A DNA stretch of 64,000 nt from a virus. Lineage: Duplodnaviria > Caudoviricetes. The notes beneath the pieces are model-generated. The model ran no database searches. It saw nothing but the letters and a program-made list of their open reading frames with translations, and was not told the DNA's origin. Location of the stretch: positions 649 to 64,648 of the IMG/VR virus record IMGVR_UViG_3300044448_004493. The stretch is one strand, 5' to 3'. The position numbers and the translations under genes were made by a program. Positions 1,586 to 53,245 of the stretch are shown here, one piece after another (the stretch's first letter is position 1; the number at the start of each line of letters is the position of its first letter).

Positions 1586-3538
1586 ATGAAAAAACAAAAA
1601 ACTACAATAAATCGTTTTAAAAAACTAGCAGGGTTAAAACCTCTATATGAAAGTAGAAAAAAACAACAACTAAATGAATTTTGGGAGGCAATTTTAGGGG
1701 CAGCAGCTTGGTGGTTAGTAAAAAGACTATATAATTATTTTGAGGGTGACCCAGGAATGGTAAGCCCTGGAACTAGTGGTGGAGGAGATTTACCATTTGG
1801 AATGGCTGAATTTGAAGCAGAAGCATTAATGAACTGGGCAGAAAGTGGAGGACGTCCATCAGATGAAATAGCTATGATAGTTAGAAAATATCAACATTTT
1901 ACTCCTTATGGAAAAAGAATGGGTAAAGATGATAGTTTCGACAGGCATTTAGGTGAAGCATTAGATTATGATGATTTACCTCCTAGTAAAAAACTTCTAA
2001 ACGAAAAATTGTGGGATGACAAATTAGTTTTTAACCCATGGGATGATGGTGAGAAAGATCCTTTTGATAACCCATTTGGAGGATTCGACCCATGGAATAC
2101 AGGTTCTACAACAGGAGGAGATGAAGGTTCAGGAGATGGATCTTGTAAAGCAGGATGTGGTAATTTATGTAGTGTTGCTACGAATGCAAAAGAATTAGAA
2201 ACCTATGTATCCCGTTTGGGAAGTGAAAAAGAAATAGAAAACTTTGTCAAAACAACTATAGAACCTATTGGTACCGGCTTTACATGGGATTGGGTTGTAA
2301 GAAAAGCTGGAATGAGAGAGGAAAAAATGGTCTTAAAGGAATGGTTAGGTGTATTAATTGGATTGATTGCACTTGGTGTTGGAACCTGGGCTTTATTTAG
2401 AAAACCAAATTGTGACTGTCCATGTGGAGGAATGGTACGTCCTGGTGGTGATGGATCTTTACCTGCTACACGTAAAAATGAAATAAAACGTCCTAGTGGT
2501 AAAAGAAAATCTTATTATAAGAAGCATAGAATGTCTGAGCAAACAAGCCTATTAGATGATAACCCATGTGATTCATGGGGTAATTTTCAAACTTGGTCAG
2601 ATCAGTTTGAACAAAATTTTACTAATGCTCCTTGGGCTAATAACCCAAACCAACCATGTAAATTTTTAGGAAATAGAGTAGATAAATGGAGAGCAAAAGC
2701 ACAAGGGGGAATTGGTCAAGCATGGCAAGCTCAATTAAATTGTAAAATACAACACACAATACAAACTTTAGGCCCTCAATATGGATGTACTAATTTAACA
2801 GAATCTAAAGGAAAACTTTCAAAAGTTAAAAAAGCAATATTAAACTTAATGAAAGAAAGCACGAATAAAAAACTTAGACAAATAGCAAATAAAGCAGGAA
2901 TTTATGAGAGGTTAGATGAAAAGAAAAAGAAGTCTAAAATGGAGAAAATAGTAAAAGGAATTTTAAAAATTATTGGTTGGCCAAAGAGTGGTATAACGAC
3001 TTCAACTACACTAGGTGATCTTATAAGTAGAAAAGCTGAATTCGAAAAGATGGCCAAAGGCTCAGGTGGAGACTCTAGTGGAGATTCAGGACCTAAAGAA
3101 CCAAAAGGAGAACCTGTAGATGAATCAAAAGGACAATTAAACGAAGCGTGGTGGATGGGTATAGCTATCAAACTTATACTTTTTCTATTAGATGAGATGG
3201 ATGTTTTAGGATTGACTAATGATAATACAGTGGGTGATCTGCTTGATAAATTAGAAAGTGATGACGTTGATACAGGAAAAGCTATAGGCCAATCCATGAA
3301 TTGTTGTACAGGTGATGTACATTGTGGTGCTGGAGGAAGATGTGGAAAAGATTGTAGATGTGAATATGGAGCTCCAGGAAACCCATGGGATAATGTAGGA
3401 GACTCAGGAGATTCAGGACCTAAAGAACCAAAAGGCCAAGATATGGCAGAATCAAGAGTACCACGTAGATTATTAGAAGCAGTTAAAGCAGTTAGAAGAA
3501 GTAATAGTAAAGGTGGATGTGGTTGTAGTAAAAAATAA
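1586..3538 (+). CDS. modular polyprotein, candidate capsid-packaged protease-processed cargo
   Basis: N-terminal RFKKLAGLKPLYE motif. Modules begin after LNE, LKE, LDE and PVDE, and include hydrophobic helices and Cys-rich blocks. Confidence 0.6.
   Translation: MKKQKTTINRFKKLAGLKPLYESRKKQQLNEFWEAILGAAAWWLVKRLYNYFEGDPGMVSPGTSGGGDLPFGMAEFEAEALMNWAESGGRPSDEIAMIVRKYQHFTPYGKRMGKDDSFDRHLGEALDYDDLPPSKKLLNEKLWDDKLVFNPWDDGEKDPFDNPFGGFDPWNTGSTTGGDEGSGDGSCKAGCGNLCSVATNAKELETYVSRLGSEKEIENFVKTTIEPIGTGFTWDWVVRKAGMREEKMVLKEWLGVLIGLIALGVGTWALFRKPNCDCPCGGMVRPGGDGSLPATRKNEIKRPSGKRKSYYKKHRMSEQTSLLDDNPCDSWGNFQTWSDQFEQNFTNAPWANNPNQPCKFLGNRVDKWRAKAQGGIGQAWQAQLNCKIQHTIQTLGPQYGCTNLTESKGKLSKVKKAILNLMKESTNKKLRQIANKAGIYERLDEKKKKSKMEKIVKGILKIIGWPKSGITTSTTLGDLISRKAEFEKMAKGSGGDSSGDSGPKEPKGEPVDESKGQLNEAWWMGIAIKLILFLLDEMDVLGLTNDNTVGDLLDKLESDDVDTGKAIGQSMNCCTGDVHCGAGGRCGKDCRCEYGAPGNPWDNVGDSGDSGPKEPKGQDMAESRVPRRLLEAVKAVRRSNSKGGCGCSKK
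3080..3435 (+). repeat. 29-bp exact direct repeat GGAGATTCAGGACCTAAAGAACCAAAAGG (3080-3108 and 3407-3435)
   Basis: Read directly from the sequence; encodes the GDSGPKEPKG linker twice within 1586..3538. Confidence 0.9.
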
Positions 3539-3552
3539 AAAATAAAAACGTT

Positions 3553-3810
3553 ATGGAAAAATTAAAAAGTTACTTTAAAAGGTTGTGGAAAGCGCTTTGG
3601 GATTCTACAGATTTAGATGAAAAAGCAGAAGCAGCATTAAAAGAAGCGAAAGCTAGAATCGCTGAAATGAAAAAAGAACTAGCAGATGTTAAAAAAGCAG
3701 CTAAAAACGTTGTAGCACAATCAAAAGACGTTATAGATGCAGCAAAAGGAAAAAAAAGAAGAGGAAAAAAACCTTATTATAAAAATAAAAAGAAAAAAAC
3801 CAATAAATAA
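3553..3810 (+). CDS. small coiled-coil protein with a very basic C-terminal tail
   Basis: Co-oriented ORF tightly packed between neighbours; ends KGKKRRGKKPYYKNKKKKTNK. Confidence 0.6.
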   Translation: MEKLKSYFKRLWKALWDSTDLDEKAEAALKEAKARIAEMKKELADVKKAAKNVVAQSKDVIDAAKGKKRRGKKPYYKNKKKKTNK

Positions 3811-3829
3811 CTCAAATAAAAAAGAAAAA

Positions 3830-4282
3830 ATGAATTTAAAAGATCTTAAAAAAATGATAGCCGAAGAATATTCTAGATACCTATCAGAACAAGAAGAGCC
3901 TGAAGTAGCAGTTTCGGATGCAGATGTTGATATGGAAGGAGGTGAAGACGCAGAATCTACATTAAGAGACATTTATGATATGTTAAAATCTTATTTTGAA
4001 GGTGGGGAAGATGCAGCAGCCGGAGCAGCAGCAGCAGCAGCAGATGATATGGCTGATGACACTATGGATGATTTAGAAGATATGGATGATGAAGATGAGG
4101 GTGATGAAGAAGAATTAGATGAAGCTAAAAAAGCAGGAGGAGGATGTACTAAAGATAGTGACTGTGGTCCTGGCTCATGTTGTAGAGGTGGTTCATGTGG
4201 TGGCTGTATGGATGACCCAACCGGTAAATCAAAAGATTTAAAAGAAAGGTTCCAAAAATTAGCCAACATTATTAAAGGTTAA
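3830..4282 (+). CDS. acidic mini-scaffold-like protein with a Cys-rich mini-domain and C-terminal RFQKLANI
   Basis: Start moved to ATG 3830 (MNLKDLKKMIAEEY) because 3737 overlaps the previous gene. Has an Asp/Glu-rich core, CTKDSDCGPGSCCRGGSCGGC, and a tail identical to the scaffold tail. Confidence 0.65.
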   Translation: MNLKDLKKMIAEEYSRYLSEQEEPEVAVSDADVDMEGGEDAESTLRDIYDMLKSYFEGGEDAAAGAAAAAADDMADDTMDDLEDMDDEDEGDEEELDEAKKAGGGCTKDSDCGPGSCCRGGSCGGCMDDPTGKSKDLKERFQKLANIIKG

Positions 4283-11006: not shown

Positions 11007-11897
11007 ATGGCAAGCACAATAATAAGAAATCTTCTTAATAATAATATTGATAAAGTTATAGTTAGAGCTAAATCTGAAGTAAAAAATGAATCTAAAAAAG
11101 AAATAACTAAACTAAAAGAAAATATCCCATCTCCCGAAGATTTAAAAGAACAAATAGTAACATCGGCATGTAGTGCTAAAGCTCAATCTAAAATTGAAAG
11201 AATATTTAATAAAAATAAATCATTATTAGATAAATTAAATAATAGATTAAAACAATCAAAAGAAAAATTAGCGGAATTAGATAATAAACTTAATAAAGTA
11301 CGTAATATAATAGACAAAATAAAAGAAATACTACAAGCATTAGGAGCTATATTAATAGCTTTAGAAATAATAGTAAGAGTAGCACCAGCAGGATTAGCTG
11401 CTTCTTCGGGGCCCGCTGCTAGTGGGATTATTATAGATAGATTAGGTAAAGCTATTGATTATGGAAAAGCTAAAATAAAAGAATATGGTAGTTTAACCAA
11501 AGCTATATTAGCCAATTTACCAAAATACGCAGAAAAAGCCTTAGCAATATTAGCAATAATAGGGGCAGCAATACTTGCTTTAAATATGTTAATAACATTA
11601 ATAGACAAGTTAATTGTATTTTTACAATTTTTATATGCTAAATATATAGAAAATTGCACAGTATCAGACCAATCCCCTATAAATAATGAGGGGCTTCTTA
11701 ATGAAGATCTTTTACTAGCAAATGAAAATATAAATTCTGGAATAGCTGATCAAATGTCTACATATTATGATGATTTATTACAAACTTTATCCGAAGGAGG
11801 ATATACATTACAAGCTCAAAGAATATATAAAGTAATTAATTCTTCAGATTTATTACAAAAATCTTATTCTTTAATTGAAACTCCTAAAACTATTTAA
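11007..11897 (+). CDS. coiled-coil virion protein with two long hydrophobic segments
   Basis: ILQALGAILIALEIIVRVAP and ALAILAIIGAAILALNMLITLI segments. Confidence 0.5.
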   Translation: MASTIIRNLLNNNIDKVIVRAKSEVKNESKKEITKLKENIPSPEDLKEQIVTSACSAKAQSKIERIFNKNKSLLDKLNNRLKQSKEKLAELDNKLNKVRNIIDKIKEILQALGAILIALEIIVRVAPAGLAASSGPAASGIIIDRLGKAIDYGKAKIKEYGSLTKAILANLPKYAEKALAILAIIGAAILALNMLITLIDKLIVFLQFLYAKYIENCTVSDQSPINNEGLLNEDLLLANENINSGIADQMSTYYDDLLQTLSEGGYTLQAQRIYKVINSSDLLQKSYSLIETPKTI

Positions 11898-31510: not shown

Positions 31511-33139
31511 ATGAAGAAAAAAGATTTATATAAAATAGTCAAAAAAGAATTAAAAGAACAACTTCGAGGAAGGGACAATGAAATAGAACCTTTAGATAAT
31601 GAACCTATGGATTTTGATGATCTTGTGCCTGATGACTCAACACCACCACCAGATCCAGGAGGAACTGATTATGGCCCACTACTCGAATATTATTGTACTG
31701 CTGATTCCACAGCTAAATATGCTGGTACACTTGATATAGGTGATAAATTTTGTTGTGATGGAGACAGTAACAATGGTGCTCAGTCAAGTACTGGTGGGTT
31801 TGCTGGAGGAGTAGATAGTACTATAGCAGGAAGTCCATCTGGAGATTATTGTTTAGGTGTACATCAACAACAAAGTCTTACTCCCCCACCTCTTAATGAT
31901 TGTTCAGCTGGAACTTTAGCTGCTGATTGGGCTGCTTGGGTAGGTTTTAGCCAATGGCCTTATGGGGGAAATATAGTTACTGATACAGGAGTAGCAACAG
32001 CTAATACTCCTAATACAGCTTTTGGTCCTTATAGTTCTCTGCAGGCTGCAAAAATGAATTGTTGTCCTGATAAAAATAACCTAGCTACCAATCCAAATGG
32101 CACTTGTAGAGGATGTAGAGTTTCGGGTAATGATAACTATGGTTCTGGTTATACTATGTCAGCAAATAATTCTGATTGTATAACTTATGATTGTGATTTA
32201 TCAGCAAATCCACCATATGTTGCAGTAACTGGGCTTGGAGGAACACATGCTAATGCAGCAGCAGCAGCAGCAGCTTGTATAAGTACTACAGTTTACGGAT
32301 GTACTACAGTAGGAGACTGTAACGAAGATACGAATGCTACTGCAAATGATCCACTTTATTGTGTGGGAGTGCCTAATGGAGCATGTGAATCATGTAGCAC
32401 AGATCCATCTGCGGTAGATCCTACCTATAACCCAAGTGGTAATATAGTAGTAAGTAGTGTAGGGGCAACTGGAGGATGTAGTTGTGATGTACCAGGATCA
32501 GGTAATTATGATCCATCAAATTTAGGATGTCCTGATCAAAATAATGATCCAGATCCAGGTAATACTGGTTGTTGTACACCACCAAGCACCACAGCATGTA
32601 TGCAAATTAAAGCAGTAGAATGTAATTCTCATCAAATACCAGGACAACAATCAGTCCATATTACTCCTTGTGCAACTATTGATGGTCAAACACCCCAACA
32701 AGGAGATTCATATATGACAGGTAATGGAGTACCATATTTGATATATCTCCCTGATGGATCGGAATTTGTAAATCACTCAGGATATATAGATTATGAAGTA
32801 ATAGAAGTAAATATGCCAGATGCACCCGCAGGTCAGCCTGCACCAACACCAGTTAATCTTCAGGGGGGAATGTGTCCTAGACCTACAACTACAACACCAA
32901 AAGACCCAAGAACAAAACATCAGACTGATGGTCAATTTGCTAATCCATTTAGCCCTCAATTTGATACCGAACTTACACATTATCATGATAATCCGGCATT
33001 TAAAGATGAGGAAGAAATTATATCTGAAATTCAAACAAGTAAAAAATTAAGAGCTTTATTTGAAGAAGAATTTTCACTTAATGAAGAAAAAAAGTTAAGA
33101 AACTTAATTAAAAAGGTGTTAAAAAAGAAAATAAAATGA
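31511..33139 (+). CDS. Cys/Gly/Pro-rich protein with amphipathic tags at both ends, candidate head cargo
   Basis: MKKKDLYKIVKKELKE start, LNEEKKLRNLIKKVLKKKIK end, and many Cys between. Confidence 0.6.
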   Translation: MKKKDLYKIVKKELKEQLRGRDNEIEPLDNEPMDFDDLVPDDSTPPPDPGGTDYGPLLEYYCTADSTAKYAGTLDIGDKFCCDGDSNNGAQSSTGGFAGGVDSTIAGSPSGDYCLGVHQQQSLTPPPLNDCSAGTLAADWAAWVGFSQWPYGGNIVTDTGVATANTPNTAFGPYSSLQAAKMNCCPDKNNLATNPNGTCRGCRVSGNDNYGSGYTMSANNSDCITYDCDLSANPPYVAVTGLGGTHANAAAAAAACISTTVYGCTTVGDCNEDTNATANDPLYCVGVPNGACESCSTDPSAVDPTYNPSGNIVVSSVGATGGCSCDVPGSGNYDPSNLGCPDQNNDPDPGNTGCCTPPSTTACMQIKAVECNSHQIPGQQSVHITPCATIDGQTPQQGDSYMTGNGVPYLIYLPDGSEFVNHSGYIDYEVIEVNMPDAPAGQPAPTPVNLQGGMCPRPTTTTPKDPRTKHQTDGQFANPFSPQFDTELTHYHDNPAFKDEEEIISEIQTSKKLRALFEEEFSLNEEKKLRNLIKKVLKKKIK

Positions 33140-33591
33140 AAAAACAACCTTTAATAGAACGTTTTCAAAAATTAGCAGGTATTAAATCTCTATATGAACA
33201 AGAAGATGTTGACTTAACAAGTGGAGAAATTGAAATTAGTTTAGAAGATTTAGATTTTGAAACACTTAAAAAAGCTTTTCCTAATCATTATCAAAAAGAA
33301 AAATTTATACGTCCTCAAACAGGTAAACCTTACTATGAAGATGCTATTTCATTTCCTAATTTAGATGACAGTAGTATGGTAATAGGGGATGAATTAGCAT
33401 TAGGGGATTGGAAAGATAAAGTAAGTAGACGATTTGGAAACGTTGAAATAGTATTTAATAATGAAGCAAAAAATAGTTGGGATAGAGTATTTGTATCTGA
33501 CGATGCATTTAATGCTGCGAGAGATAAATTTATTAGAGGAAAAATGTCAGCTATGCAAAGAGATATGGATAAAGGTAGAAGTATAGATTAA
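33136..33591 (+). CDS. hypothetical protein with an N-terminal RFQKLAGI tag
   Basis: MKKQPLIERFQKLAGIKSLYE start. Confidence 0.6.
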   Translation: MKKQPLIERFQKLAGIKSLYEQEDVDLTSGEIEISLEDLDFETLKKAFPNHYQKEKFIRPQTGKPYYEDAISFPNLDDSSMVIGDELALGDWKDKVSRRFGNVEIVFNNEAKNSWDRVFVSDDAFNAARDKFIRGKMSAMQRDMDKGRSID

Positions 33592-34422: not shown

Positions 34423-36126
34423 ATGAAAAAATTTAATTATAAAAAATGGGTAGTAGAAAATAAATACTATGGTAAACAACCACTAAATGAATTTTGGGGT
34501 ATAATTGCGGGATATGTAGCTAATTGGTTATATGATAGATTAAGTGATTATTATGGATCTGGTAACCCGCTAGATTGGTTTGGTGGTATGGAAATCCCAC
34601 CTCCACCACCATTTGGAATGCCTTTAGATGATGTAAAAGTGATAGCATCAACAAATGGTAATTTTGAAAACCCTGAAAACCCAGAAGAATTATATAGAGT
34701 AGTTATGAAATATAAACATCTTACTCCTTATGCTGATGCTCAAACTAGGGGAGATATGAAGATGATAAGAGAACAAGAAGATAAAGATCAGTATGGCCGT
34801 ACTCAGGCTGATAGAGACTGGGAACAGGGTATCAACCCAAAAACAGACAAAAAAAGTACAGCACAGAATTCACCCTCTCAAGAAGAAAAAGTTAAAGTAA
34901 GTATAGATGGAGAAAAAACAGACGTTACAATTAATTATAAACCAGGTAGTAATCTTCAAGATGTTCAAATCAGTTGGGGAGAAGAATCACATACCGTAGA
35001 TTTTGAATACGATGACACAATGGATGATCATGGTAATGAAGGTATGGACACATGGTTTACAGCAGAATCAGAAGATGGTAAATGGAAATTTGGATTAGAA
35101 GTTTATGTAGAAGCTAGTTTTCATAATTCAGGTAATATAGGAGATTGGGATTGGAATTCTTTAGAAATAGAAATAGATGATTCTAAGAAGGATGAACCTG
35201 TAGATGAAGCTAGGGGCCCATCAGGATGTCCCCCTGTATCTTGTAGAGATGGGTTAACACAACATCCAGATACTTGTAAATGTGTTCGAACTAGCTCTCT
35301 TATGGAATCTAAATTAAAAAAAGTAATAAAAAAACATTTGAGAAAATTAAATGAACAAACACAGGATCAATGTGAAAGTTTACAATCACACCCTAGTTTT
35401 CCAATGTGTTGTGAAAATGCTATAGGAGGTAATCCTCCTAACCCACAAGCTTGGTGGGAAGCAGATGAATGTACAAATATTTTTAATACCGCAGCTAGTA
35501 TGGGATTAAATCAAACACAACTTGAAAATTGTTGTAAAGGTGTTTATAGTACTGGTTGTGAAGTAACATTACCAGCGTCTCACCCGTCTTGTGTAAAATG
35601 TTTCTCAAATCAAGCACAAGGATCCCCAGTTCCTCCAGGAGGAGCAGCAGCAGGAGCTCCAGGATCTGGAGATAATTGTGAATGTTGTGAAGATGATTCA
35701 GGAGAAGATCCATGTAGTGATAAAAATACAGCTCATGCACAATGTTTTTGGTGTAGACAAGAAAATAACCCTACACAAACATGTTCTATGGTGGGAGCTA
35801 ATTTAGGATACGCTTTATCTAATAATATTCCTTTATTTTCAGATATAAATGATTGTCATGCACAAACAAGTTGTAATGGTCCTGGTGAAGATCCAGAAAT
35901 AAAATGTCAATGTTGTGATAAACATAATCAACCTGTATCTATGGTACAAACAGTACCTTCTACTCCAGGATGTAGTGTTTTAAATAACCCACCAAATTTT
36001 ACAAATTGTCAAACCCATCCATTATCTGGAGGAACACCGATAAAATGTAAAACACTACCAGGCCCAATAGATGATTTCCCTGTAGGTTTATCAGAAATGG
36101 TAAAAGCTTTAGGATATATAAAATAA
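34423..36126 (+). CDS. modular polyprotein, candidate head cargo
   Basis: QPLNE-FWG module homologous to the first module of 1586..3538; PVDE, LME and LNE boundaries; Cys-rich C-terminal half. Confidence 0.6.
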   Translation: MKKFNYKKWVVENKYYGKQPLNEFWGIIAGYVANWLYDRLSDYYGSGNPLDWFGGMEIPPPPPFGMPLDDVKVIASTNGNFENPENPEELYRVVMKYKHLTPYADAQTRGDMKMIREQEDKDQYGRTQADRDWEQGINPKTDKKSTAQNSPSQEEKVKVSIDGEKTDVTINYKPGSNLQDVQISWGEESHTVDFEYDDTMDDHGNEGMDTWFTAESEDGKWKFGLEVYVEASFHNSGNIGDWDWNSLEIEIDDSKKDEPVDEARGPSGCPPVSCRDGLTQHPDTCKCVRTSSLMESKLKKVIKKHLRKLNEQTQDQCESLQSHPSFPMCCENAIGGNPPNPQAWWEADECTNIFNTAASMGLNQTQLENCCKGVYSTGCEVTLPASHPSCVKCFSNQAQGSPVPPGGAAAGAPGSGDNCECCEDDSGEDPCSDKNTAHAQCFWCRQENNPTQTCSMVGANLGYALSNNIPLFSDINDCHAQTSCNGPGEDPEIKCQCCDKHNQPVSMVQTVPSTPGCSVLNNPPNFTNCQTHPLSGGTPIKCKTLPGPIDDFPVGLSEMVKALGYIK

Positions 36127-40977: not shown

Positions 40978-41376
40978 ATGAGTATATTAGGAACAATATT
41001 TAGCGGAGGAGCTAAAGATTTAGTAGAAGGTGTAGGAGGAGTTATAGACAATCTACATACTTCTAAAGAAGAAAAATTAGAAGCAGAACAAAAAATTAAA
41101 GAATTAATAGCTAACTACGAGGTTGAAATGGAAAAAAACATTACAGATCGTTGGAAAGCTGACATGAATAGTGATTCATGGTTAAGTAAAAATGTAAGAC
41201 CACTTGTTTTAATTTTTCTTGTGGTTTGTACCGTTTTAATGATATTTATTGATGCGGGAACTATTTCATTTGTAGTAGAACAAAAATGGACAGATCTATT
41301 ACAATTAGTATTAATAACAGTAATCGGTGCTTACTTTGGTGGTAGGTCATTCGAAAAAGCTAAAAAAATTAAATAA
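40978..41376 (+). CDS. holin (3TM/GTA holin-like)
   Basis: TSKEEKLEAE..DRWKADMNSDSWLSKNVRPLVL followed by TM helices and YFGGRSFEK. Confidence 0.75.
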   Translation: MSILGTIFSGGAKDLVEGVGGVIDNLHTSKEEKLEAEQKIKELIANYEVEMEKNITDRWKADMNSDSWLSKNVRPLVLIFLVVCTVLMIFIDAGTISFVVEQKWTDLLQLVLITVIGAYFGGRSFEKAKKIK

Positions 41377-43754: not shown

Positions 43755-45344
43755 ATGGCCCAACAAAATATAAAACAAATTATAAAGCAAGAGTACATTA
43801 AATGTGCTAAGGATCCTGTCTACTTTATGAAAAAATATTGTTATATACAACATCCAACAAGGGGTCGTATACAATTTAATCTTTTTCCTTTTCAAGAAAA
43901 AGTACTAAATTTATTAAATAAAAATGACAGAAATATAATACTTAAATCAAGGCAATTAGGGATTTCAACCTTATCCGCAGGTATTTCTTTATGGATGATG
44001 GTATTCCAAAAAGATAAATCAATACTTGTAGTAGCAACAAAACAAGATACAGCTAAGAATTTAGTAACAAAGGTTAAATACATGTATGATAATTTACCTT
44101 CTTGGTTACAAATAGGATTTACAGAAAATAATAAATTAGCACTTCGACTTAAAAATGGATCTCAAGTAAAAGCAGTATCAGCAGCAAGTGATGCTGGTAG
44201 ATCAGAAGCAATATCTTTACTAATTGTAGATGAAGCAGCTTTTATTGAAGAAAACAGAATAGAAGACATTTGGGGATCTTCACAACAAACATTATCAACG
44301 GGGGGTAAAGCAATTGTACTTTCTACACCTAATGGAACAGGTAACTTTTTTCATAGAATGTGGGTTAAAGCCCAAGAAGGAACTAATGGATTCATCCCTA
44401 TTAGATTACCTTGGACAGTACATCCAGAAAGAAATCAAGAATGGAGAAATAAACAGGATGATGAATTAGGATTAAGAATGGCCTCACAAGAATGTGATTG
44501 TGATTTTACAACTTCTGGTAATACTGTTTTTGAACCTGAAATTTTAACTTTTGTTGAATCTACAAATATATGTGACCCCTTAGAAAGAAGAGGAATAGAT
44601 GGTAGTTTACATATTTGGGAATATCCTGATTATAATAGAAACTTTATAATAGTAGCAGATGTTGCAAGAGGGGATAGTCAAGATTATTCCGCTTTTCATA
44701 TTATTGATGTTAAAGAATGTAAACAAATTGGTGAATTTAAAGGACAAATAGGTACAAAAGAATTTGGACATATGTTAGTTGCTATTGCAACTGAATATAA
44801 TAATGCATTACTTGTAATTGAAAATGCAAATATAGGTTGGAACACAATACAAGTAGTAATAGATAAAGGATATAAAAATTTATATTATTCTCCTAAAGGA
44901 GAAGCAGCAACAAGCGCAGACGCTTTTCTAGCTAAAGGATATGATATAACAGATACCACTAAAATGGTACCTGGTTTTACAATGTCAATGAAAACAAGAC
45001 CTTTAGTAATAGGAAAATTAGATGCTTATTTAAGAGATAAATCAATAACTATTCAAGGAAAAAGAACATTAGAAGAAATGCGTACTTTTATATGGAAAAA
45101 TGGAAGAGCTGAAGCACAAATAGGTTATAACGATGATTTAGTTATGTCTTTAGCAACAGCATGTTATATAAGAGACACAGCACTTAAATTTGCCCAACAA
45201 GGAATAGATATGACAAATGCAGCATTAAGTAATTGGAAAAAAACAACACCTGCTATTTTTGTTAGTGGTACAAATAAAAAAGAAACAGGATGGACTCAAG
45301 ACTTAGGAGAACATGGACAACAAGATTTGACTTGGCTCCTTTAA
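43755..45344 (+). CDS. terL: terminase large subunit (T4 gp17-like)
   Basis: ILKSRQLGIST Walker A, LIVDEAAF Walker B, ADVARG..DYSAF and NDDLVM nuclease motifs. Confidence 0.95.
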   Translation: MAQQNIKQIIKQEYIKCAKDPVYFMKKYCYIQHPTRGRIQFNLFPFQEKVLNLLNKNDRNIILKSRQLGISTLSAGISLWMMVFQKDKSILVVATKQDTAKNLVTKVKYMYDNLPSWLQIGFTENNKLALRLKNGSQVKAVSAASDAGRSEAISLLIVDEAAFIEENRIEDIWGSSQQTLSTGGKAIVLSTPNGTGNFFHRMWVKAQEGTNGFIPIRLPWTVHPERNQEWRNKQDDELGLRMASQECDCDFTTSGNTVFEPEILTFVESTNICDPLERRGIDGSLHIWEYPDYNRNFIIVADVARGDSQDYSAFHIIDVKECKQIGEFKGQIGTKEFGHMLVAIATEYNNALLVIENANIGWNTIQVVIDKGYKNLYYSPKGEAATSADAFLAKGYDITDTTKMVPGFTMSMKTRPLVIGKLDAYLRDKSITIQGKRTLEEMRTFIWKNGRAEAQIGYNDDLVMSLATACYIRDTALKFAQQGIDMTNAALSNWKKTTPAIFVSGTNKKETGWTQDLGEHGQQDLTWLL

Positions 45345-45369: not shown

Positions 45370-47214
45370 ATGGCAGATACTAGCTTATTTTCAAGACTAC
45401 AACGGTTATTTTCAAGTGATGTAATCATTAGAAATGTAGGAGGAAAAAGACTTAAAGTAATGGATACAGGTAGGATCCAAAAATATGGAAACCTAGCTAC
45501 TAATTCACTTTATGATAGATTTACACGTCTACATAAACCTGTAGGATCTTCATTACAATATAACCCAACACTGAATTATCAATCAATGAGACTTCAGCTT
45601 TATAGTGATTATGAAGCTATGGATCATGATCCTATTATTGCAGCAGCACTTGATGTTATTTCTGATGAAACAACTTCAAGAAATGAATATGGGGATGTTT
45701 TAAATATTAATTCTTCGGATGAAAATATTAGAAAAGTATTACATAATTTATTTTATGATGTTTTAAATGTAGAATTTAATCTTCCTACATGGGTTAGAAA
45801 TATGTGTAAATATGGAGATTTTTATTTAAAAATGGAAGTTTCTGAAAAATTTGGAGTATATAATGTTATTCCTTTATCTGTTTATGAAGTAGTAAGAGAA
45901 GAAGGAACAGATCCAGAAAATCCTTCTTATGTTAGATTTACACTTGATCCAAATGGTTTAGCTAGTGGTGCAACTAATACAATTAGAAGAGATCAATTCA
46001 CATTAGAAAACTATGAAGTAGCTCATTTTAGATTACTTACAGACTCAAATTATCTTCCTTATGGTAGAGCTTATTTAGAACCTGCTCGTAAAGTATTTAA
46101 ACAATTAATGTTAATGGAGGATGCTATGTTAATTCATAGAATTATGAGAGCACCTGAAAAAAGGGTATTCTATATTAATATTGGTAATACTGATCCTGAT
46201 AAAGTAGAACAATTTATGGCTGATACAGCTAATAAGATGAAAAAAACACCTTATATAGATCAAAATACGGGTGATTATAATCTTAAATTTAACATGCAAA
46301 ATATGACTGAAGATTTCTTTATTCCTATTAGGGGTAATGATGCTTCAACAAGAATTGATACTACTAAAGGATTAGATTATGATGGTACTCAAGATATTGA
46401 ATACTTAAAAGCTAAAATGATGGCTGCTCTTAAAATACCTAAACCATTTTTGGGTTATGAAGAAGGAGTAGAAGGAAAATCAACATTAGCGGGTATGGAT
46501 ATTCGTTTTGCAAGAACAGTAGAACGTATCCAAAGAATTATAGAATCAGAATTAACTAAAATAGCATTAGTACATTTATATTCACAAGGTTTTACAGATG
46601 AACAATTAGTAGATTTTAAATTAGAATTAACAACCCCATCAATAGTTTATGAACAAGAAAAAGTAGAACTATATACAGCAAAAACTACAGTAGCTCAAAC
46701 TATGATAGATAATAAAATATTTAGTAAAGATTGGGTTTATGAAAATATATATGGTTTATCTCCTGATCAATATAATGATCAAAAAGAAGCTATGTTAGAT
46801 GATGCAATATCTAAGTTTAGAGTTTCACAAATTGAAAATGAAGGAAATGATCCTGTAGAATCAGGTACATCTTATGGTACTCCTCATGATTTAGCTTCAT
46901 TATATGGTAATAAAAGGGACAAAGCAGTAGGCCCGGCTCAAATACCAACAGGTTATGATGAAAAAGATCCGGGGCGTCCAGTAGAAGATCCTACTAAATA
47001 TGGAAGTGATAAAGGTAATTTTAGTAGGGATCCATTAGGTAAAAAAGCTTTAGCAACAACATCCCCAGATAAATTATCAGATGGAAACAGAGTTTCTACT
47101 TTTGAAGTACAAAATATTAAACAATCTCTTCAAAAGTTAAAAAAGAAAAAAAAGATTTTAAAAGAAGAAGAAACAGGACTTTTATCTGAAAAAAATATTA
47201 AGCCTCAAGAATAG
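45370..47214 (+). CDS. gp20: portal protein (T4 gp20-like)
   Basis: LEPARKVFKQLMLMEDAMLIHRIMRAPEKRVFYINIGN and MTEDFFIPIRG motifs. Confidence 0.95.
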   Translation: MADTSLFSRLQRLFSSDVIIRNVGGKRLKVMDTGRIQKYGNLATNSLYDRFTRLHKPVGSSLQYNPTLNYQSMRLQLYSDYEAMDHDPIIAAALDVISDETTSRNEYGDVLNINSSDENIRKVLHNLFYDVLNVEFNLPTWVRNMCKYGDFYLKMEVSEKFGVYNVIPLSVYEVVREEGTDPENPSYVRFTLDPNGLASGATNTIRRDQFTLENYEVAHFRLLTDSNYLPYGRAYLEPARKVFKQLMLMEDAMLIHRIMRAPEKRVFYINIGNTDPDKVEQFMADTANKMKKTPYIDQNTGDYNLKFNMQNMTEDFFIPIRGNDASTRIDTTKGLDYDGTQDIEYLKAKMMAALKIPKPFLGYEEGVEGKSTLAGMDIRFARTVERIQRIIESELTKIALVHLYSQGFTDEQLVDFKLELTTPSIVYEQEKVELYTAKTTVAQTMIDNKIFSKDWVYENIYGLSPDQYNDQKEAMLDDAISKFRVSQIENEGNDPVESGTSYGTPHDLASLYGNKRDKAVGPAQIPTGYDEKDPGRPVEDPTKYGSDKGNFSRDPLGKKALATTSPDKLSDGNRVSTFEVQNIKQSLQKLKKKKKILKEEETGLLSEKNIKPQE

Positions 47215-47254: not shown

Positions 47255-48097
47255 ATGAAAGTAAAACATTCTAAGTACAAAAATACTGGAATTTTATTTG
47301 AACTCCTTACTAGACAGCTAACGTCTGATACTATTGCGGGGAACGATCCAAAGTCCTTAAGTTTTTTAAAAAAACACTTTAATTCTAAAACAGAATTATT
47401 AAAAGAGTATAAAATATATCATACTCTTTCTACTAAAAAATATAAACAAAATAGTCAAGCTATAATGTTAATTGAAGAATTAATTAAAGCTCATGGAAGA
47501 TTAAATAAAACTCAATTAAGAAGAGAAAAATATAATTTAATAAAAGAAATTAAAGAAAATTATGATATAAATAATTTTTTTAAATCTAAAATCACAAATT
47601 ATAAAATAATGGCTTCTGTTTTTAATTTATTAGAAAACAAAAAAGCTACACCTTTATCAATAGTTAATTCTAAAACAACTCTTTTAGAACATATTATGGA
47701 AAAACCTCTAACTAAGATAAATAATGGTCTTGCTTCTATTATAGAAAAACAGGATAAAGATACTAGATTACTTACTTATAAAGTCTTACTTGAAAAATTT
47801 AATAACAAATATAGTGGTTTAGAAGATAATCAAAAAACATTATTAAAAGAATATGTTAATAGTGTTAGTAATAGTCCTGCTCTTAAATCTTATATCAATC
47901 AAGAAATCAAAATAGTTAAAAGAGATATCTTAAAATATTCTAAAAAAATTGAAGATAAAGCAGTAGCTGTTAAATTAAATGAAGTAAAAGGAATGATTAA
48001 ACCATTATGTAAAAAATCAAATGTACATGATGATAATGTTATTAATTTACTTAACTATTATGAATTAATAAATGAATTAAAAACACTCCATGGCTAA
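47255..48097 (+). CDS. hypothetical head-module protein
   Basis: Between portal and protease; helical and Lys-rich. Confidence 0.55.
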   Translation: MKVKHSKYKNTGILFELLTRQLTSDTIAGNDPKSLSFLKKHFNSKTELLKEYKIYHTLSTKKYKQNSQAIMLIEELIKAHGRLNKTQLRREKYNLIKEIKENYDINNFFKSKITNYKIMASVFNLLENKKATPLSIVNSKTTLLEHIMEKPLTKINNGLASIIEKQDKDTRLLTYKVLLEKFNNKYSGLEDNQKTLLKEYVNSVSNSPALKSYINQEIKIVKRDILKYSKKIEDKAVAVKLNEVKGMIKPLCKKSNVHDDNVINLLNYYELINELKTLHG

Positions 48098-48701
48098 AAA
48101 ATTTAATATACACGAATGGCAAGCTAAACAAAGACGCTTGTATGAGCAAGAAGACTCAGAAACAGGAAATACATCAGATGAAACTTTATCTCCTTTAGAA
48201 AAATTAGTAGAAAGAGTTGTAGCTGTAATGGATGGTAGACTTGCTACTTGGCAAAATACAGAAACTATTAAAAGTAGTCATGATATGATGGCTTTAATGA
48301 AAAGAGATAAAGAAAAAATAAGAATGATGGTTTATAATCTTCTTAGAGATGATTTCCAACATTTAAAAGAAACAAACACGACAGGTACAGGTGCTACTGT
48401 TAGCACAGGAGCAGGGGAGGCTTTTGCTACTCCATCTGCGTTTGCTAAACCAGGTAAATGGAAAGGTAAAAAAACAACATATACAGAAAATGTTGATAAT
48501 GGAGAAGAAGAATTAGAAAAAGATGCTCAAAAAGTAGCAGATCATCCTCTAGTAGATAAAGTTAATACAAGAGATGAATGGGAAGACTTAATGCAAGCTA
48601 TTATAGATCATGGAGAAGAAAATATTTCACAAGTAAATCCTAGTGTAATGAAAACATTTTTAATGAATGCTTTAAGAGATTTAAATAAACCTAACGCTTA
48701 A
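48090..48701 (+). CDS. modular head-module protein containing a capsid N-arm-like peptide
   Basis: MAKKFNIHEW..RLYE leader; LKE-TNTTGTGATVSTGAGEAFA. Confidence 0.6.
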   Translation: MAKKFNIHEWQAKQRRLYEQEDSETGNTSDETLSPLEKLVERVVAVMDGRLATWQNTETIKSSHDMMALMKRDKEKIRMMVYNLLRDDFQHLKETNTTGTGATVSTGAGEAFATPSAFAKPGKWKGKKTTYTENVDNGEEELEKDAQKVADHPLVDKVNTRDEWEDLMQAIIDHGEENISQVNPSVMKTFLMNALRDLNKPNA

Positions 48702-48704: not shown

Positions 48705-49322
48705 ATGCTTTTAACAGAATATAGACAATTTAAAGTAGATAAACAAATAGCGGAACAAGCTGTTAGAGAAAATAAACCTTTAATAGTTCAAGGTGTACTT
48801 CAAAGAGCTGAAGCTAAAAACCAAAATGGTAGAGTTTATCCTAAGGAAATTCTTGCGAGAGAAGTCCAAAATTATATAGATGGTCCTATTAAAGATAATA
48901 GAGCTATGGGAGAATTAGACCACCCAGAAAGTTCTATAATTAATTTACAAAATGTATCCCATACAGTTAAAAAATGTTGGTGGGATGGTGATGATGTGAT
49001 AGGTAAAGTAGAAATATTAAATACACCAGCAGGAAATATATTAAAAGCATTATTTGCAGCAGGAATAACAGTTGGTATTAGTTCTAGGGGAATGGGTTCA
49101 GTAGAAGAAAATATATCAGAAGGTACAGTAGAAGTACAAGATGATTTTGAATTATTATGTTGGGATTTTGTTTCAACTCCCTCAACACATGGTGCTTTTA
49201 TGAAACCATCAACTCCTGGTATTAATGAAAATAAAATAAAACAAATAGAATACAAATACACAAATATAAATAATATAATTAGAGATATAATTTGCGATAA
49301 TACAGGAGTATGTAAATGTTAA
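48705..49322 (+). CDS. gp21: prohead protease (T4 gp21-like)
   Basis: NQNGRVYP, GELDHPE, NVSH, GISSRGMGS and WDFVSTPSTHGA motifs. Confidence 0.95.
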   Translation: MLLTEYRQFKVDKQIAEQAVRENKPLIVQGVLQRAEAKNQNGRVYPKEILAREVQNYIDGPIKDNRAMGELDHPESSIINLQNVSHTVKKCWWDGDDVIGKVEILNTPAGNILKALFAAGITVGISSRGMGSVEENISEGTVEVQDDFELLCWDFVSTPSTHGAFMKPSTPGINENKIKQIEYKYTNINNIIRDIICDNTGVCKC

Positions 49323-49373: not shown

Positions 49374-50591
49374 ATGATGTTTAGGGGAAATATAAATGAA
49401 ATGGGATGCCCATTACAGTGTTGTGTTTATACAAACATGAATGCTAATTACACTATTCAAAATACCACAGTATCAGATTGTACAATAGATTGTTTACATC
49501 AATCTATGCAACTGTTTTTTGGTGGTCCAGGAGTTAGTAGTGTTACAAATATAGATTCAAGTGGAGGGTGCCCGGTTGGAGTAGATCCAACAGGTATGAC
49601 TGTAACATGTGATGGATGTCCAAATGGGGTTCCAGTTAGTCAGCAATACCCAGATCCTCCAGGTTGTCCTCAAGGATGGATACTATCAGGAACAATTAAC
49701 CCTAATACCGGAACAGTTTTAAATCCATGTGATGACGAGGGAGAGATGATTTCTTGTGATTTTTGTGATAATGGATCACCAATTAGTAATACATTCCCAA
49801 CAGCTGATGGATGTCCTCCAGGATGGATACCATCTGGTTCAGGGAATCCTTGTGATGGTCAAGGAACAGGATGTGATTTTAGTCCTAGTGGAGGATGTGC
49901 AACTCTTCATGATTTACAAGGTAGATTTGTAAATAATATGCCAAATAATTTCTTAGCTAATATGTACAATGGGTATAATAATAATGGTTGTCCTTTCTTA
50001 CACAATAGATTACAACATCATTCAGATATGATAAATTCAAACCCACAAACATTTTATGGACCTAATAACCCACAAGGATATGTGAATCCAGGACCATTAT
50101 GGGTTAATCAAAAACAATCTAAAGTAGACTTTTTACAATGTATAATAGCAGCTTGTTGTACAGGAACTGGAAATGATCACTCAGATCCGTCAGATCCGGT
50201 TGATCACGCTAGAAGAAGAAGACCAAGAAGAATCAGAGAAAATAAAAAAACAAAATCATTATTAAAAGAAAGATTTAAACAATTAGCAGGATTAAAACCT
50301 TTATATCAATTAAAAGAACAAAATCCATCTGGGACATGTCATGGAGTAGGTGATGCATCAGGTCCTTATCCAGAATCATTTGAATTAGGTAATTGGCAAG
50401 GTACTTTTGAGGATAGGCTATCAACAGCCAATAGTCCATGTGATCTTATACAGAAAAAAGTAGATAAATGGGAAAGTAAATTAGATCAACTTTCATCTAA
50501 AACTCCTCCAAAATGTAATCCTAAATGGCAAAGTCAATTAATGGCTAAAATAGCTTATGGTAATGAGTTAAGGGTACAATACGGTTGCTAA
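49374..50591 (+). CDS. Cys-rich modular protein with an internal RFKQLAGL tag, candidate head cargo
   Basis: INE, IRE and LKE boundaries; two copies of a Cys/helical module also present in 1586..3538. Confidence 0.6.
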   Translation: MMFRGNINEMGCPLQCCVYTNMNANYTIQNTTVSDCTIDCLHQSMQLFFGGPGVSSVTNIDSSGGCPVGVDPTGMTVTCDGCPNGVPVSQQYPDPPGCPQGWILSGTINPNTGTVLNPCDDEGEMISCDFCDNGSPISNTFPTADGCPPGWIPSGSGNPCDGQGTGCDFSPSGGCATLHDLQGRFVNNMPNNFLANMYNGYNNNGCPFLHNRLQHHSDMINSNPQTFYGPNNPQGYVNPGPLWVNQKQSKVDFLQCIIAACCTGTGNDHSDPSDPVDHARRRRPRRIRENKKTKSLLKERFKQLAGLKPLYQLKEQNPSGTCHGVGDASGPYPESFELGNWQGTFEDRLSTANSPCDLIQKKVDKWESKLDQLSSKTPPKCNPKWQSQLMAKIAYGNELRVQYGC

Positions 50592-50610
50592 TAAAAATAA
50601 AAGTACTTAT

Positions 50611-50640: not shown

Positions 50641-50794
50641 ATATGTATGTCAAACAATAAAGGTTACAACAAACAATTAACTCCTATGAGAGATTAAAAA
50701 TATATAAAGTACTAAATGTACTTCAAAAGCACAAGAACAGTATGTCAGCTGTTCCTGTTTTCAATTAACTAAATTATTAACTAAAACAAAAATT

Positions 50795-51229
50795 ATGAAA
50801 AATTTAATTATGACAATTGCTGTAGCAATCATGACTACGTTTGCAGCTTCAGCACAATTTATGGTAGTTACGACTTATAATGCACCAGAAGATGGAGCAG
50901 AATGGGAAATGACTAGCTTAACTGACAACATGGGTATCGGATATGTAATAAACGATAAATATGTTGCTGGTTTAGTAAAAGCAGGAGAAGATTCAACAGG
51001 TGAAGCTTCTTATGACTTATGGGGCCGTTACAACTGGAATGCAAATTTATATGTTTCAGTACAAGCACCAATGGAAGAAATGATGGACAACTTAACAGTT
51101 GGACTAGGTTATTCTTACAATGTTTGGAAAGGGCTCAATGTTGAACCTAACTACAGCATGGGTTTAAAAGAAGATGAAAATGGTGAAAGAGCAGGTTCTT
51201 TCAATTTAGGTTTGTCTTACAAATTTTAA
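50795..51229 (+). CDS. small outer-membrane beta-barrel protein with a Sec signal peptide
   Basis: Signal peptide ending ASA|Q; alternating aromatic beta strands; C-terminal FNLGLSYKF BAM signal. Confidence 0.85.
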   Translation: MKNLIMTIAVAIMTTFAASAQFMVVTTYNAPEDGAEWEMTSLTDNMGIGYVINDKYVAGLVKAGEDSTGEASYDLWGRYNWNANLYVSVQAPMEEMMDNLTVGLGYSYNVWKGLNVEPNYSMGLKEDENGERAGSFNLGLSYKF

Positions 51230-51275
51230 ACTAATTATTAATTAAAAAAGACCTCGTAAAACAGGCAAATTAACA

Positions 51276-51503
51276 ATGGAAAAAGTATTTTCAACAGTAA
51301 GTGGATTTTTAACAGGATTAGGATCATTATTTATGGGTTTAATTCCAGTAACAATCCTTTGGTACGTCTTAACAGGCGGAACAGTATTTGGAATGGATGC
51401 AATCGCTAATTTAACTTCATTAGTAAATGGATTTGGAGAAGGTGGTTTCGTAGGATTAGTAGTACTAATTATCGTAGCATCATTTTTTACAGGTAAAAAG
51501 TAA
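51276..51503 (+). CDS. small Gly-rich multi-pass membrane protein
   Basis: Two to three hydrophobic helices and a KK tail. Confidence 0.7.
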   Translation: MEKVFSTVSGFLTGLGSLFMGLIPVTILWYVLTGGTVFGMDAIANLTSLVNGFGEGGFVGLVVLIIVASFFTGKK

Positions 51504-51526
51504 TAGTTTTTAGAACATATTTTTTT

Positions 51527-51552
51527 AAGAGAGGCGCTTCGGCGCCTCTTTT
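51527..51552 (+). terminator. intrinsic terminator with a UUCG tetraloop
   Basis: AGAGGCGC-TTCG-GCGCCTCT-TTT. Confidence 0.9.
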
Positions 51553-51588
51553 GTTTTCTATTTTTTTATTATATGTATATTAGAACAT

Positions 51589-51687
51589 ACGGACTTCCTA
51601 ATAAGCCGTCCCTGATATTTATAAACCCTTATTAAGGTTCCTAATAACCTTATTTCCCGTACAATTAATTAACGAGACTCGAAAGAG
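51589..51687 (+). ncRNA. candidate structured 5' leader of the scaffold/capsid operon
   Basis: Two hairpins sharing the loop TT-CCTAAT-AA, plus a CTC-GAAA-GAG tetraloop. ATATGTATA lies at 51571 and ATATTTATA at 51615. Confidence 0.5.
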
Positions 51688-51703
51688 AAAAAACAAAAAG
51701 AAA

Positions 51704-53245
51704 ATGGCAAAAGACATTTTAAAAGAAGCTATCGCTGATGCTAAAGCTGTTCGTGAAGTTGCTCTTGCAAATGCAAAAGCAGCCCTAGAAGAAGCTTTTA
51801 CACCGAAACTTCAATCAATGCTATCTGCTAAATTATCTGAAGAATTAGAAGAAGACATGTATTACGATGAAGATGAAAATGATGATGTTGAAGAAGAATT
51901 AGATTTAAATTCAATGTTAGATGAAGACGAATTGGAATCAGACATCGAAGAAGACATGGATTATAATGAAAATGAAGATAATATGGATGATGGTATGGAT
52001 GAAGAAATCGATTTAGAAGAAATTCTTAACGAATTAGAAATAGAAGGCGATGAAGCTAACGAAGACGAAGAAGATCTAGAAGAATTAGCACGTCCAAACT
52101 ATAAAGCAGAATATACTGGAACAAACCACCATTATTCAGCTGATAAAGTAATGGAAAGTGAAGAATTTGATTTAGATGCTCTTCTAAAAGAAATCAATAA
52201 TTTAGACGAAACAAAACAACCTTTAAATGAAATATGGATAAAGATTGGGTGCTTCCTTATAGGATGGGGGTTAACTGCACTCTTTGATCATTTTGAATGG
52301 TTACCTGCAGGAGGAGGTGGAATGACAACCGGTCCTGGTACTGGTGGTGTAGGAGACGCTGATATGGCTGCTGCAGCACGAAAAATAGGATTAACGGTTC
52401 CACAAACAAACAGATTACTAGGATGGGCAGAAAAAAATCCACATAAAATAGAAATGTGTAATAGTGGTGGTTCCCTAACAATGAATGATGTATCAGAAAT
52501 AAGAGACATTCTTCCTATATTAGCCGCAAAAAGTGGACGAGCAGATATGGGTGGAGTAGATACAGGTTTAAGAGGACCTAAAGAACCAATGGCAATGATG
52601 GATATGATGGAAAACGCTGAACCTGTAAATGAAAGCATATTTGCTGCTTTGTCAGGATTAGTAGCGCTATTAGGTACAGCTGGTATTACAACAGCAATCG
52701 AAGTGGCATTAGAAGATCCAGAATTCGCAGAGAAACATCCTAAATTAAAAGGTGTTTTTGATTTACTTAAAAAAATAGGAAATTCTTCATTAGTTAAAGG
52801 TATTAAACAAGAAGATATAACTTATGATGAAGACGAAAGTGATGAGTCAGAAGAGCTTGAAGAAACTAAAAAAGCCCTTAAAGCAGTTAAATCTGAACTT
52901 AATGAAGTTAATCTTTTAAATTCTAAATTATTATATGTTAATAGGATTTTTAAATCTAACAATTTAGATGATGGTCAAAAACTTAGAGTTGTTGAAACAT
53001 TAGATAAAGCTGGAAGTATTAAAGAATCTAAATTAATATATGAAACAATTAAGGATACTTTTAATGTTGCTAATACAAAGAAAGCATCTGTTAGAAAAAA
53101 TCAAACAAGAACTATAAAAGAAAATTTTGGAATGGCTTCTAAAGCAGCTGGTATTTATAAAGCTCCTAAAAAAGAAATCATTTCAGAGTCTAATAATATG
53201 GTATCTCGTTTCCAAAAATTAGCAAACATACAGATAAACGAATAA
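51704..53245 (+). CDS. gp22: prohead scaffolding/core protein (gp22-like) with inserted cargo modules
   Basis: Immediately before the capsid gene; acidic and coiled-coil; ends SRFQKLANIQINE. Confidence 0.8.
   Translation: MAKDILKEAIADAKAVREVALANAKAALEEAFTPKLQSMLSAKLSEELEEDMYYDEDENDDVEEELDLNSMLDEDELESDIEEDMDYNENEDNMDDGMDEEIDLEEILNELEIEGDEANEDEEDLEELARPNYKAEYTGTNHHYSADKVMESEEFDLDALLKEINNLDETKQPLNEIWIKIGCFLIGWGLTALFDHFEWLPAGGGGMTTGPGTGGVGDADMAAAARKIGLTVPQTNRLLGWAEKNPHKIEMCNSGGSLTMNDVSEIRDILPILAAKSGRADMGGVDTGLRGPKEPMAMMDMMENAEPVNESIFAALSGLVALLGTAGITTAIEVALEDPEFAEKHPKLKGVFDLLKKIGNSSLVKGIKQEDITYDEDESDESEELEETKKALKAVKSELNEVNLLNSKLLYVNRIFKSNNLDDGQKLRVVETLDKAGSIKESKLIYETIKDTFNVANTKKASVRKNQTRTIKENFGMASKAAGIYKAPKKEIISESNNMVSRFQKLANIQINE

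Follow-up and report, generated by a model that had tools for sequence, protein, structure and literature searches.

The prohead protease gp21 of phage T4 cuts after Glu in the motif L/I-X-E; it strips propeptides of 7-65 residues off proteins that are kept in the head, and it chops the core proteins into fragments (PMC9026906). In Salmonella phage SPN3US, a gp21-related prohead protease removes the propeptide of the head protein gp47 after x-x-E, so that the mature fragment begins with a predicted transmembrane helix, and ejection of this fragment and its contact with the host membrane have been proposed by the authors of that work (PMC5694885). How contractile-tailed phages cross the cytoplasmic membrane, and the roles of their packaged proteins, are poorly understood outside T4 and the phiKZ group. 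Here we analyze a stretch of 64,000 nucleotides (positions 649 to 64,648 of the IMG/VR record IMGVR_UViG_3300044448_004493; hereafter, the window), in which three putative head-interior proteins, a scaffold-like protein included, appear to carry very membrane-seeking helices right after predicted head-protease sites. The window offers a clear case, at the level of sequence, of a reusable cassette that places such a helix exactly at a predicted maturation cut. It makes up nearly all of a 64.6-kb viral contig with a G+C content of ~30%, and its genes suggest an uncultured, distant T4-like myovirus of Bacteroidota. The nearest cultured relatives are Flavobacterium phage immuto, whose capsid protein is 55% identical, and Microcystis phage Mel-JY01; Rhodothermus phage RM378 is farther removed.

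Hydrophobic Segments Behind [L/V]-x-E

An earlier note on this DNA had listed six hydrophobic segments and one cationic amphipathic segment, each immediately after LNE, LKE, VNE, or LDE, and translation of the three open reading frames (ORFs) concerned found all seven in place. The proteins and segments are given below; segments are named hereafter by their first position. KD19 is the Kyte-Doolittle value over 19 residues, taken from Biopython, and the Eisenberg, Hessa, and Wimley-White values are approximate.

1586..3538, + strand: P0001, 650 amino acids, modular and Cys-rich; besides two cassette copies, it has a third hydrophobic segment and an amphipathic one
34423..36126, + strand: P0002, 567 amino acids; a tag and a cassette lead into a small helical region and a beta domain, and the C-terminal half is very Cys-rich
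51704..53245, + strand: P0003, scaffold-like, directly upstream of the capsid gene
1679..1741, + strand: cassette copy 1, P0001 residues 32-52; KD19 0.54 (not transmembrane-grade), Wimley-White interfacial sum -6.7 kcal/mol
2342..2407, + strand: cassette copy 2, P0001 residues 253-274, between L-K-E and G-G-M-V-R-P-G; KD19 2.04, Hessa sum -0.6
2921..2980, + strand: cationic amphipathic segment of P0001, after L-D-E; hydrophobic moment 0.54
3146..3190, + strand: third hydrophobic segment of P0001, after L-N-E; weak match to the cassette hidden Markov model (HMM), domain E = 0.36
34492..34554, + strand: cassette copy 3, P0002 residues 24-44; KD19 0.33, Wimley-White sum -6.1
52232..52294, + strand: cassette copy 4, in the variable center of P0003
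52634..52711, + strand: Gly/Ala-rich hydrophobic helix of P0003, after V-N-E; KD19 1.81, Hessa sum 1.0

No other hydrophobic segments exist in P0001-P0003, and [L/V]-[N/K]-E immediately precedes each of those listed. The observation holds and is not random. Across the 65 ORFs of the window, hydrophobic 14-mers whose first residue follows a polar one are enriched immediately behind [LIV]-x-E (one-sided Fisher test, p = 5e-5 to 5e-4, depending on the threshold), and in the 62 ORFs other than P0001-P0003 the same coincidence of helix and [LIV]-x-E is found only three times. What stands out is that motif and helix are paired and not that the motif is dense, as [LIVM]-N-E alone is not over-represented in the window (27 observed vs. 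21 expected). The junctions are not all independent: four of the segments are paralogous, which leaves about four independent junctions.

The segments had been thought to form one family. Four of them are indeed copies of one cassette, but 52634 is a separate conserved helix, and 3146 and 2921 are lineage-specific. The description "Trp-rich" fits the four cassette copies and 3146 and fails for the Gly/Ala-rich 52634. Segment 2921 is cationic and has a high hydrophobic moment.

The Trp-Rich Helix Cassette

Segments 1679, 2342, 34492, and 52232 belong to a cassette of about 50 residues, comprising K-Q-x-L-N-E, a Trp-rich helix of about 20 residues, and a Gly-rich linker that contains G-G-M-V-R-P-G; between P0001 and P0002, the N-termini are similar at E = 4.7e-11. 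Reading L-N-E as P3-P2-P1, all eight known copies (four in the window and four in orthologues) have Leu at P3 and Glu at P1, P2 being Asn in seven and Lys in one, and sequence conservation reaches out to P6. The Glu-helix junction is retained in the orthologues P0134, P0135, and P0014, which are 47-72% identical to their window counterparts. One orthologue differs from P0001 by a P2 change from Lys to Asn and by an additional Ser that separates Glu from Trp; in P0135, the counterpart of copy 2 reads L-N-E and the helix is kept.

Few proteins have the cassette: when 1.84 billion representative proteins were scanned exhaustively with HMMER, only two further clusters with it emerged, P0134 (the orthologue of P0002) and P0135 (the orthologue of P0001), the weaker matches being Gly-rich or repeat matches. 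No further copies were detected by HMM scan in a six-frame translation of the window or in the head loci of immuto and Mel-JY01, and an N-terminal alignment scan of viral contigs gave no relative. Among 120 homologues of the scaffold-like protein, only P0014 has the Trp cassette. P0135 is the sole orthologue of P0001 (47% identity by BLASTP), the search that returned it being word-based.

The AlphaFold2 model of P0002 residues 1-275 consists of a helix at 23-43 (predicted local distance difference test [pLDDT] 67-87), a small helical region, and then a confident beta domain; in this model, the helix may pack against residues 49-100. Homologues of P0002 have only the beta domain in common with it, joined to other tags and other ends. 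A Foldseek search of this model against PDB gave no match at E <= 0.001, and the ESM Atlas provided no usable lead, its own model of P0002 having a predicted template modeling score of 0.24. No match to P0002 was found by tblastn against 50,697 phage records, and a megablast search of 6 kb against the phage records was likewise without a match.

Two further observations concern the remainder of these proteins. The P0002 beta domain (35000-35200, residues ~150-255; pLDDT > 90) is common to at least nine metagenomic proteins with varied tags and end modules. The C-terminal half of P0002 contains dozens of Cys residues, and Cys-rich stretches with runs such as C-D-C-P-C and C-C-x-G recur in tag-bearing, putatively head-interior proteins (35200-36126, 49374-50591, 3737-4282, and parts of 1586-3538), which suggests metal binding or disulfide cross-linking inside the capsid.

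The Scaffold-Like Protein and Its Variable Center

P0003 lies between the protease gene and a gp23-like capsid gene, and its counterparts in immuto and Mel-JY01 sit at the same position. At least 7994 homologues were found at E <= 0.001 among 8000 candidates scored. Gene position, an acidic region, and long helices all fit a scaffold, although a profile of 47 such sequences compared with T4 gp22 by hhalign gave no significant match (E = 0.1, probability 0.6%). As a side observation, the immuto homologue, gp067 (L001:10725-11966), is annotated in GenBank as a "DNA polymerase phi-like protein", probably a mis-annotation arising from its acidic low-complexity region.

Comparison of P0003 with its homologues P0014-P0133 revealed a hypervariable center that follows a conserved E-I-N-N-L-D-E, and an invariant L-N-E/V-N-L-L (the slash marking the predicted cut) at the start of the conserved C-terminal domain. 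Depending on the relative, the slot is filled by the Gly/Ala helix or the Trp cassette, by basic peptides or Cys pairs, or by a duplicated soluble module. The Gly/Ala helix is found in 88 of the 120 homologues. Its 57 distinct junctions have Glu at P1 in 52, Asn (37) or Pro (13) as the commonest P2 residues, and Thr (27) or Gly (13) at P3. The remaining 32 homologues have no hydrophobic helix, with basic, Cys-containing, or other inserts instead; the slot of immuto contains a duplicated non-hydrophobic module after V-N-E and L-E-E, and that of Mel-JY01 only acidic sequence. The helices are thus dispensable for scaffolding and may be regarded as passengers: from the alignments they look like cargo in a slot bounded by Glu sites. 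In the AlphaFold2 model of P0003, two helices, 176-196 and 310-323, each start from the Glu. The first is followed by a Gly linker with pLDDT < 50; a confident small domain (218-277) and a C-terminal coiled coil flank the low-confidence stretch that contains the second.

These data bear on whether the helices serve to assemble the core. Apolar helices with Trp-rich or small-xxx-small faces could pack together to build or size the core and to join the two cargo proteins to the cassette-bearing scaffold, with cleavage doing nothing but dismantling the core, after which the fragments would leave or be inert. The presence of the same cassette on the scaffold and on both cargo proteins would permit like-with-like docking, the Gly/Ala helix is widespread in scaffolds, and T4 core fragments mostly exit the head (PMC9026906). 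Against this, the helix-less close homologues and both cultured relatives fill the slot with unrelated inserts, and the Trp cassette is present in only 2 of 121 scaffold sequences (that of the window and P0014), so neither helix is needed for scaffolding. We regard a core-assembly role as possible, if on the unlikely side.

The Prohead Protease and the Predicted Cleavage Sites

The presumed processing enzyme and the sites that relate it to P0001 and P0002 are as follows:

48705-49322, + strand: prohead core serine protease (S77, T4 gp21 type), presumed processing enzyme; Pfam PF03420, 4.6e-32; PDB 5JBL, 1.8e-19
53440..53448, + strand: V-N-E, capsid protein residues 58-60, predicted maturation site used to calibrate the motif
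1586..1678, + strand: N-terminal propeptide of P0001, 31 amino acids, holding the scaffold-type tag R-F-K-K-L-A-G-L and ending in L-N-E (residues 29-31)
34423..34491, + strand: N-terminal tag of P0002, 23 amino acids, K-F-N-Y..W type, ending in L-N-E (residues 21-23)

Alignment of the protease with the T4 gp21 structure 5JBL has the His of E-L-D-H-P and the Ser of S-S-R-G in place, which we take to be catalytic residues. The capsid V-N-E/A lies about eight residues from the position aligned to the T4 gp23 site L-T-E65/A66; the site reads V-S-E/A in immuto and I-S-E/A in Mel-JY01, and a Gly/Thr-rich stretch, not a modelled helix, follows it. At 31 and 23 amino acids, the propeptides of P0001 and P0002 fall within the 7-65-residue range of T4 (PMC9026906), and that of P0001 is nearly invariant in P0135.

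The P0001 and P0002 propeptides carry two types of predicted capsid-targeting signal, both of which recur on unrelated proteins. The first is the scaffold's own C-terminal motif, R-F-Q-K-L-A-(G/N)-(I/L), which stands at the C-terminus of 121 of 121 scaffold sequences (that of the window and its 120 homologues). It is also found, terminally or internally and usually followed by K-P-L-Y-E, on four other window proteins: P0001 and ORFs 3737-4282 (C-terminal), 33136-33591 (N-terminal), and 49374-50591 (internal), as well as on several metagenomic proteins. By analogy with encapsulin cargo peptides, it looks like a portable capsid-loading tag. The second type, K-F-N-I/Y-x-x-W followed by [L/Y/F]-x-E, is shared by P0002, ORF 48090-48701, P0010, P0012, P0134, and immuto gp069. 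The tags are located as follows:

1613-1636, 4246-4269, 33160-33183, 50271-50294, and 53209-53232 (approximate): scaffold-type motif
34423-34491 and 48090-48150, and in immuto L001:10340-10400: K-F-N-Y..W tag

In every case the K-F-N-Y..W tag has [L/Y/F]-x-E as its end, at residues 17-23, with or without a helix behind it; on proteins without the helix, only acidic or polar sequence comes next. The L-x-E is therefore part of the tag, which is also the case for the capsid targeting sequences of T4, and in P0001 and P0002 the residue after the tag happens to be the first of the cassette helix. Tags of this kind could be used to load foreign proteins into the capsids of Bacteroidota phages.

A simpler explanation of the junctions would dispense with cleavage. 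L-N-E may be no more than a helix cap, with Asn as the cap, Glu in the first turn, and Leu as a hydrophobic staple, its match to the gp21 motif being a by-product of the residues favored where helices begin. Consistent with this, both AlphaFold2 models begin their helices exactly at the Glu, the Gly/Ala-helix junctions favor Asn and Glu at P2 and P1 with mostly Thr or Gly at P3, and [LIVM]-N-E, as noted above, is not enriched in the window. A cap does not account for the same motif at the capsid site, where no helix is modelled, nor for its place at the end of shared N-terminal tags that run on into acidic or polar sequence; nor would it call for an invariant P3 Leu in the eight cassette copies and for conservation as far as P6. 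We consider capping without cleavage quite unlikely. The claim of the earlier note that these are protease sites thus finds agreement in the protease family, the capsid site, the shared tags, and the conservation of junctions in orthologues, but less so at 52634, where P3 is mostly Thr or Gly. Overall, these junctions are probably genuine sites of the prohead protease, lying in proteins that become part of the head core.

Membrane Affinity and Exposure of the Helices

By Kyte-Doolittle and Hessa values, 2342 and 52634 are clearly transmembrane-grade, and 1679 and 34492, each with only 11-14 consecutive uncharged residues, are not; 3146 passes the former (1.67) and fails the latter, and 52232 is borderline. 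Clear transmembrane character is thus confined to two of the segments, which as a group had been likened to membrane-active helices. Predicted partitioning into the membrane interface (Wimley-White) ranks all four cassette helices among the top 0.1% of the 21-mers encoded in the window, and the sum for copy 1 is within the lowest 0.03%.

Exposure was judged only from pLDDT and secondary structure. The models do not make the helices buried cores of globular domains: they lie between Gly/Pro-rich, low-confidence linkers and outside the confidently modelled domains. G-P-K-E-P linkers precede the junctions at 3146 and 52634, and G-G-M-V-R-P-G linkers follow the cassette helices, a layout that, as modelled, speaks against burial. 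The likeness to bacteriocins that had been drawn does not survive. Pfam and PHROG searches with P0001-P0003 gave nothing meaningful, and there is no context of leader, immunity, or export genes. We rejected a bacteriocin reading because there is no family match and the neighboring genes are structural or tag-bearing.

Two more conventional membrane roles can be weighed against these values. Helices on core proteins might tether them to the host inner membrane during initiation of the prohead, the cut at the helix boundary then freeing it; proheads of T4 and SPN3US do assemble bound to the membrane and detach only after proteolysis (PMC9026906). In P0001, a very basic propeptide is followed by an apolar helix, and the charges that flank the second helix fit an in-out-in topology. 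However, the protease acts inside a closed shell, so its substrates and the helices attached to them must be inside as well; moreover, in the scaffold, a many-copy protein, the cassette has a long acidic region on one side and a coiled coil on the other, and the first helices of P0001 and P0002 have only short uncharged runs (11-14 residues). A tether of this kind seems distinctly improbable to us. The other possibility is that P0001 and P0002 have nothing to do with the capsid and are Cys-rich host-membrane or periplasmic proteins with signal-anchor helices. Both indeed combine a basic N-terminus, an apolar helix, and many Cys residues, and the window encodes other proteins of secreted types, one with a type IX secretion system (T9SS) sorting tail and one resembling an outer-membrane protein. 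Their N-termini, however, are tags common to other proteins of the head-gene region, the same cassette occurs in the middle of the scaffold, and the first helices are too short and too charged for signal anchors; we judge this explanation highly improbable.

A Proposed Path from Prohead to Host Membrane

We propose, tentatively, that P0001 and P0002 are internal proteins of the head that are targeted to the capsid, that P0003 is the scaffold, and that tag-mediated loading, cleavage, retention, ejection, and partitioning into a membrane follow in that order; this may well be right, though as a complete sequence of steps it falls a little short of probable. A short tag, either the scaffold's R-F-Q-K-L-A-G or K-F-N-Y..W, would bring each protein into the prohead core. 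The gp21-type protease would then cut after Glu in [L/V]-x-E, that is, exactly at the first turn of the helix, which is strongly apolar and aromatic and has flexible Gly/Pro linkers on either side; this would apply to the four cassette copies and probably to the Gly/Ala helix of the scaffold. The matured products would start with a free membrane-seeking helix, remain in the head, and exit with the DNA. Once in the host, the helices would enter the cytoplasmic membrane, where they could anchor the domains attached to them or perturb or open the membrane. What the analysis itself shows is the sequence layout, the homology of the cassettes, the conservation of junctions in orthologues, the protease gene, the site in the capsid protein, and the sharing of tags. 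Together these give the cleavage good, if indirect, support; a membrane role is plausible.

Several points weigh against the proposal. Retention in the head is not a given because most scaffold fragments of T4 leave it (PMC9026906). Four of the seven segments are not transmembrane-grade, and these include the first helices of P0001 and P0002 (KD19 0.54 and 0.33), which would form the mature N-termini. Thr or Gly occupies P3 in 40 of the 57 Gly/Ala-helix junctions, outside the T4 rule, which renders cleavage before that helix less certain than at sites with Leu or Ile, as Asn-Glu could simply cap it; L-N-E at the start of the other helices also resembles a cap, with Asn at the N-cap and Glu in the first turn. 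The P1' residue at the junctions is Phe, Ile, Trp, Leu, Ser, or Ala, whereas it is Ala at the capsid sites of T4 and of this phage group. Segments 2921 and 3146 are in stretches missing from P0135, and the rarity of the cassette, with two other clusters in all, leaves little comparative power. Finally, cleavage at the junctions, retention in the virion, ejection, and membrane action are alike inferred.

A more far-reaching version, which we think unlikely, would have the scaffold, present in many copies per head, and the two cargo proteins carry protease-armed membrane peptides, namely the Trp-rich interfacial cassette and a Gly/Ala helix resembling a fusion peptide, that stay in the head and are expelled with the DNA to open, anchor to, or depolarize the host cytoplasmic membrane. 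If true, leftover pieces of scaffold would serve as effectors of entry and would be the tailed-phage equivalent of lytic peptides in non-enveloped animal viruses; effector scaffolds would also be common in the group, since the Gly/Ala helix is present in most of the 120 closest homologues, nearly all of which come from uncultured metagenomic phages. Fragments that are retained and ejected would make scaffold remnants into infection effectors, and if they are not, the helices show how such cores assemble.

Other Genes of the Window

Nearly every long ORF of the window is on the + strand, and baseplate and tail genes are encoded in addition to the following:

3-533: ORF with a C-terminal T9SS sorting domain (Por_Secre_tail, 4.8e-13)
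40978-41376: three-transmembrane holin, GTA_holin_3TM family (8.5e-06)
43755-45344: large terminase, T4-type head module
45370-47214: gp20-type portal, T4-type head module
53269-54984: gp23-type capsid protein, T4-type head module

The T9SS sorting domain at the end of ORF 3-533 suggests that the host belongs to the Bacteroidota and that a phage protein leaves the cell via the T9SS of that host. Two small genes without a Pfam match, 50795-51229 and 51276-51503, are located between the protease and scaffold genes; one product has a signal peptide and an outer-membrane-protein-like C-terminus (...S-Y-K-F), and the other is a 75-amino-acid protein with three hydrophobic segments. In immuto, a different small gene occupies this interval. 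Elsewhere, between the gene for a lysozyme-domain protein and baseplate wedge genes, 11007-11897 encodes a 296-amino-acid protein with two strongly hydrophobic stretches, which could be a tape-measure protein or a tail protein that contacts the membrane.

Comparison with Known Systems

In class I fusion peptides, the nodavirus gamma peptide, and adenovirus protein VI, a maturation cut leaves a Gly/Ala-rich or amphipathic apolar helix at a free end, or close to one, and arms it for attack on a membrane at entry. The 52634 helix is similar to these in composition, by analogy only and not by homology. The animal-virus peptides derive from surface glycoproteins or capsid proteins of viruses whose entry is by fusion or endosome rupture, whereas a tailed phage sends its DNA through a tail tube.

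T4 provides the internal proteins IPI-III and Alt, with their capsid targeting sequences, and the core proteins gp22, gp67, and gp68, all processed by the same protease family at L/I-X-E sites. In T4, loaded proteins lose their short N-terminal tags, and several cuts are made in the scaffold (PMC9026906); likewise, the window has short tags that end in predicted sites and a scaffold-like protein with more than one of them, and the gene order of portal, core genes, protease, scaffold, and capsid is also alike. The differences are that gp22 has no hydrophobic helix and that the tags here are longer and of other sequence, one of them being the scaffold's own C-terminal motif.

Of the known systems, SPN3US gp47, whose positional counterparts are phiKZ gp86 and 201phi2-1 gp148, comes closest. 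The tblastn search with P0002 against the phage records and the PHROG comparisons of P0001-P0003 detected no sequence similarity to gp47 or its relatives, and the likeness is one of design: a head protein processed by the prohead protease, with a helix at the mature N-terminus, which here is predicted from sequence. The propeptide of gp47 is 111 amino acids long, as opposed to 23-31 in P0001 and P0002. Furthermore, the helix is here a repeated cassette that has also been inserted into the scaffold, and most of its copies are interfacial and aromatic in character rather than transmembrane-grade.

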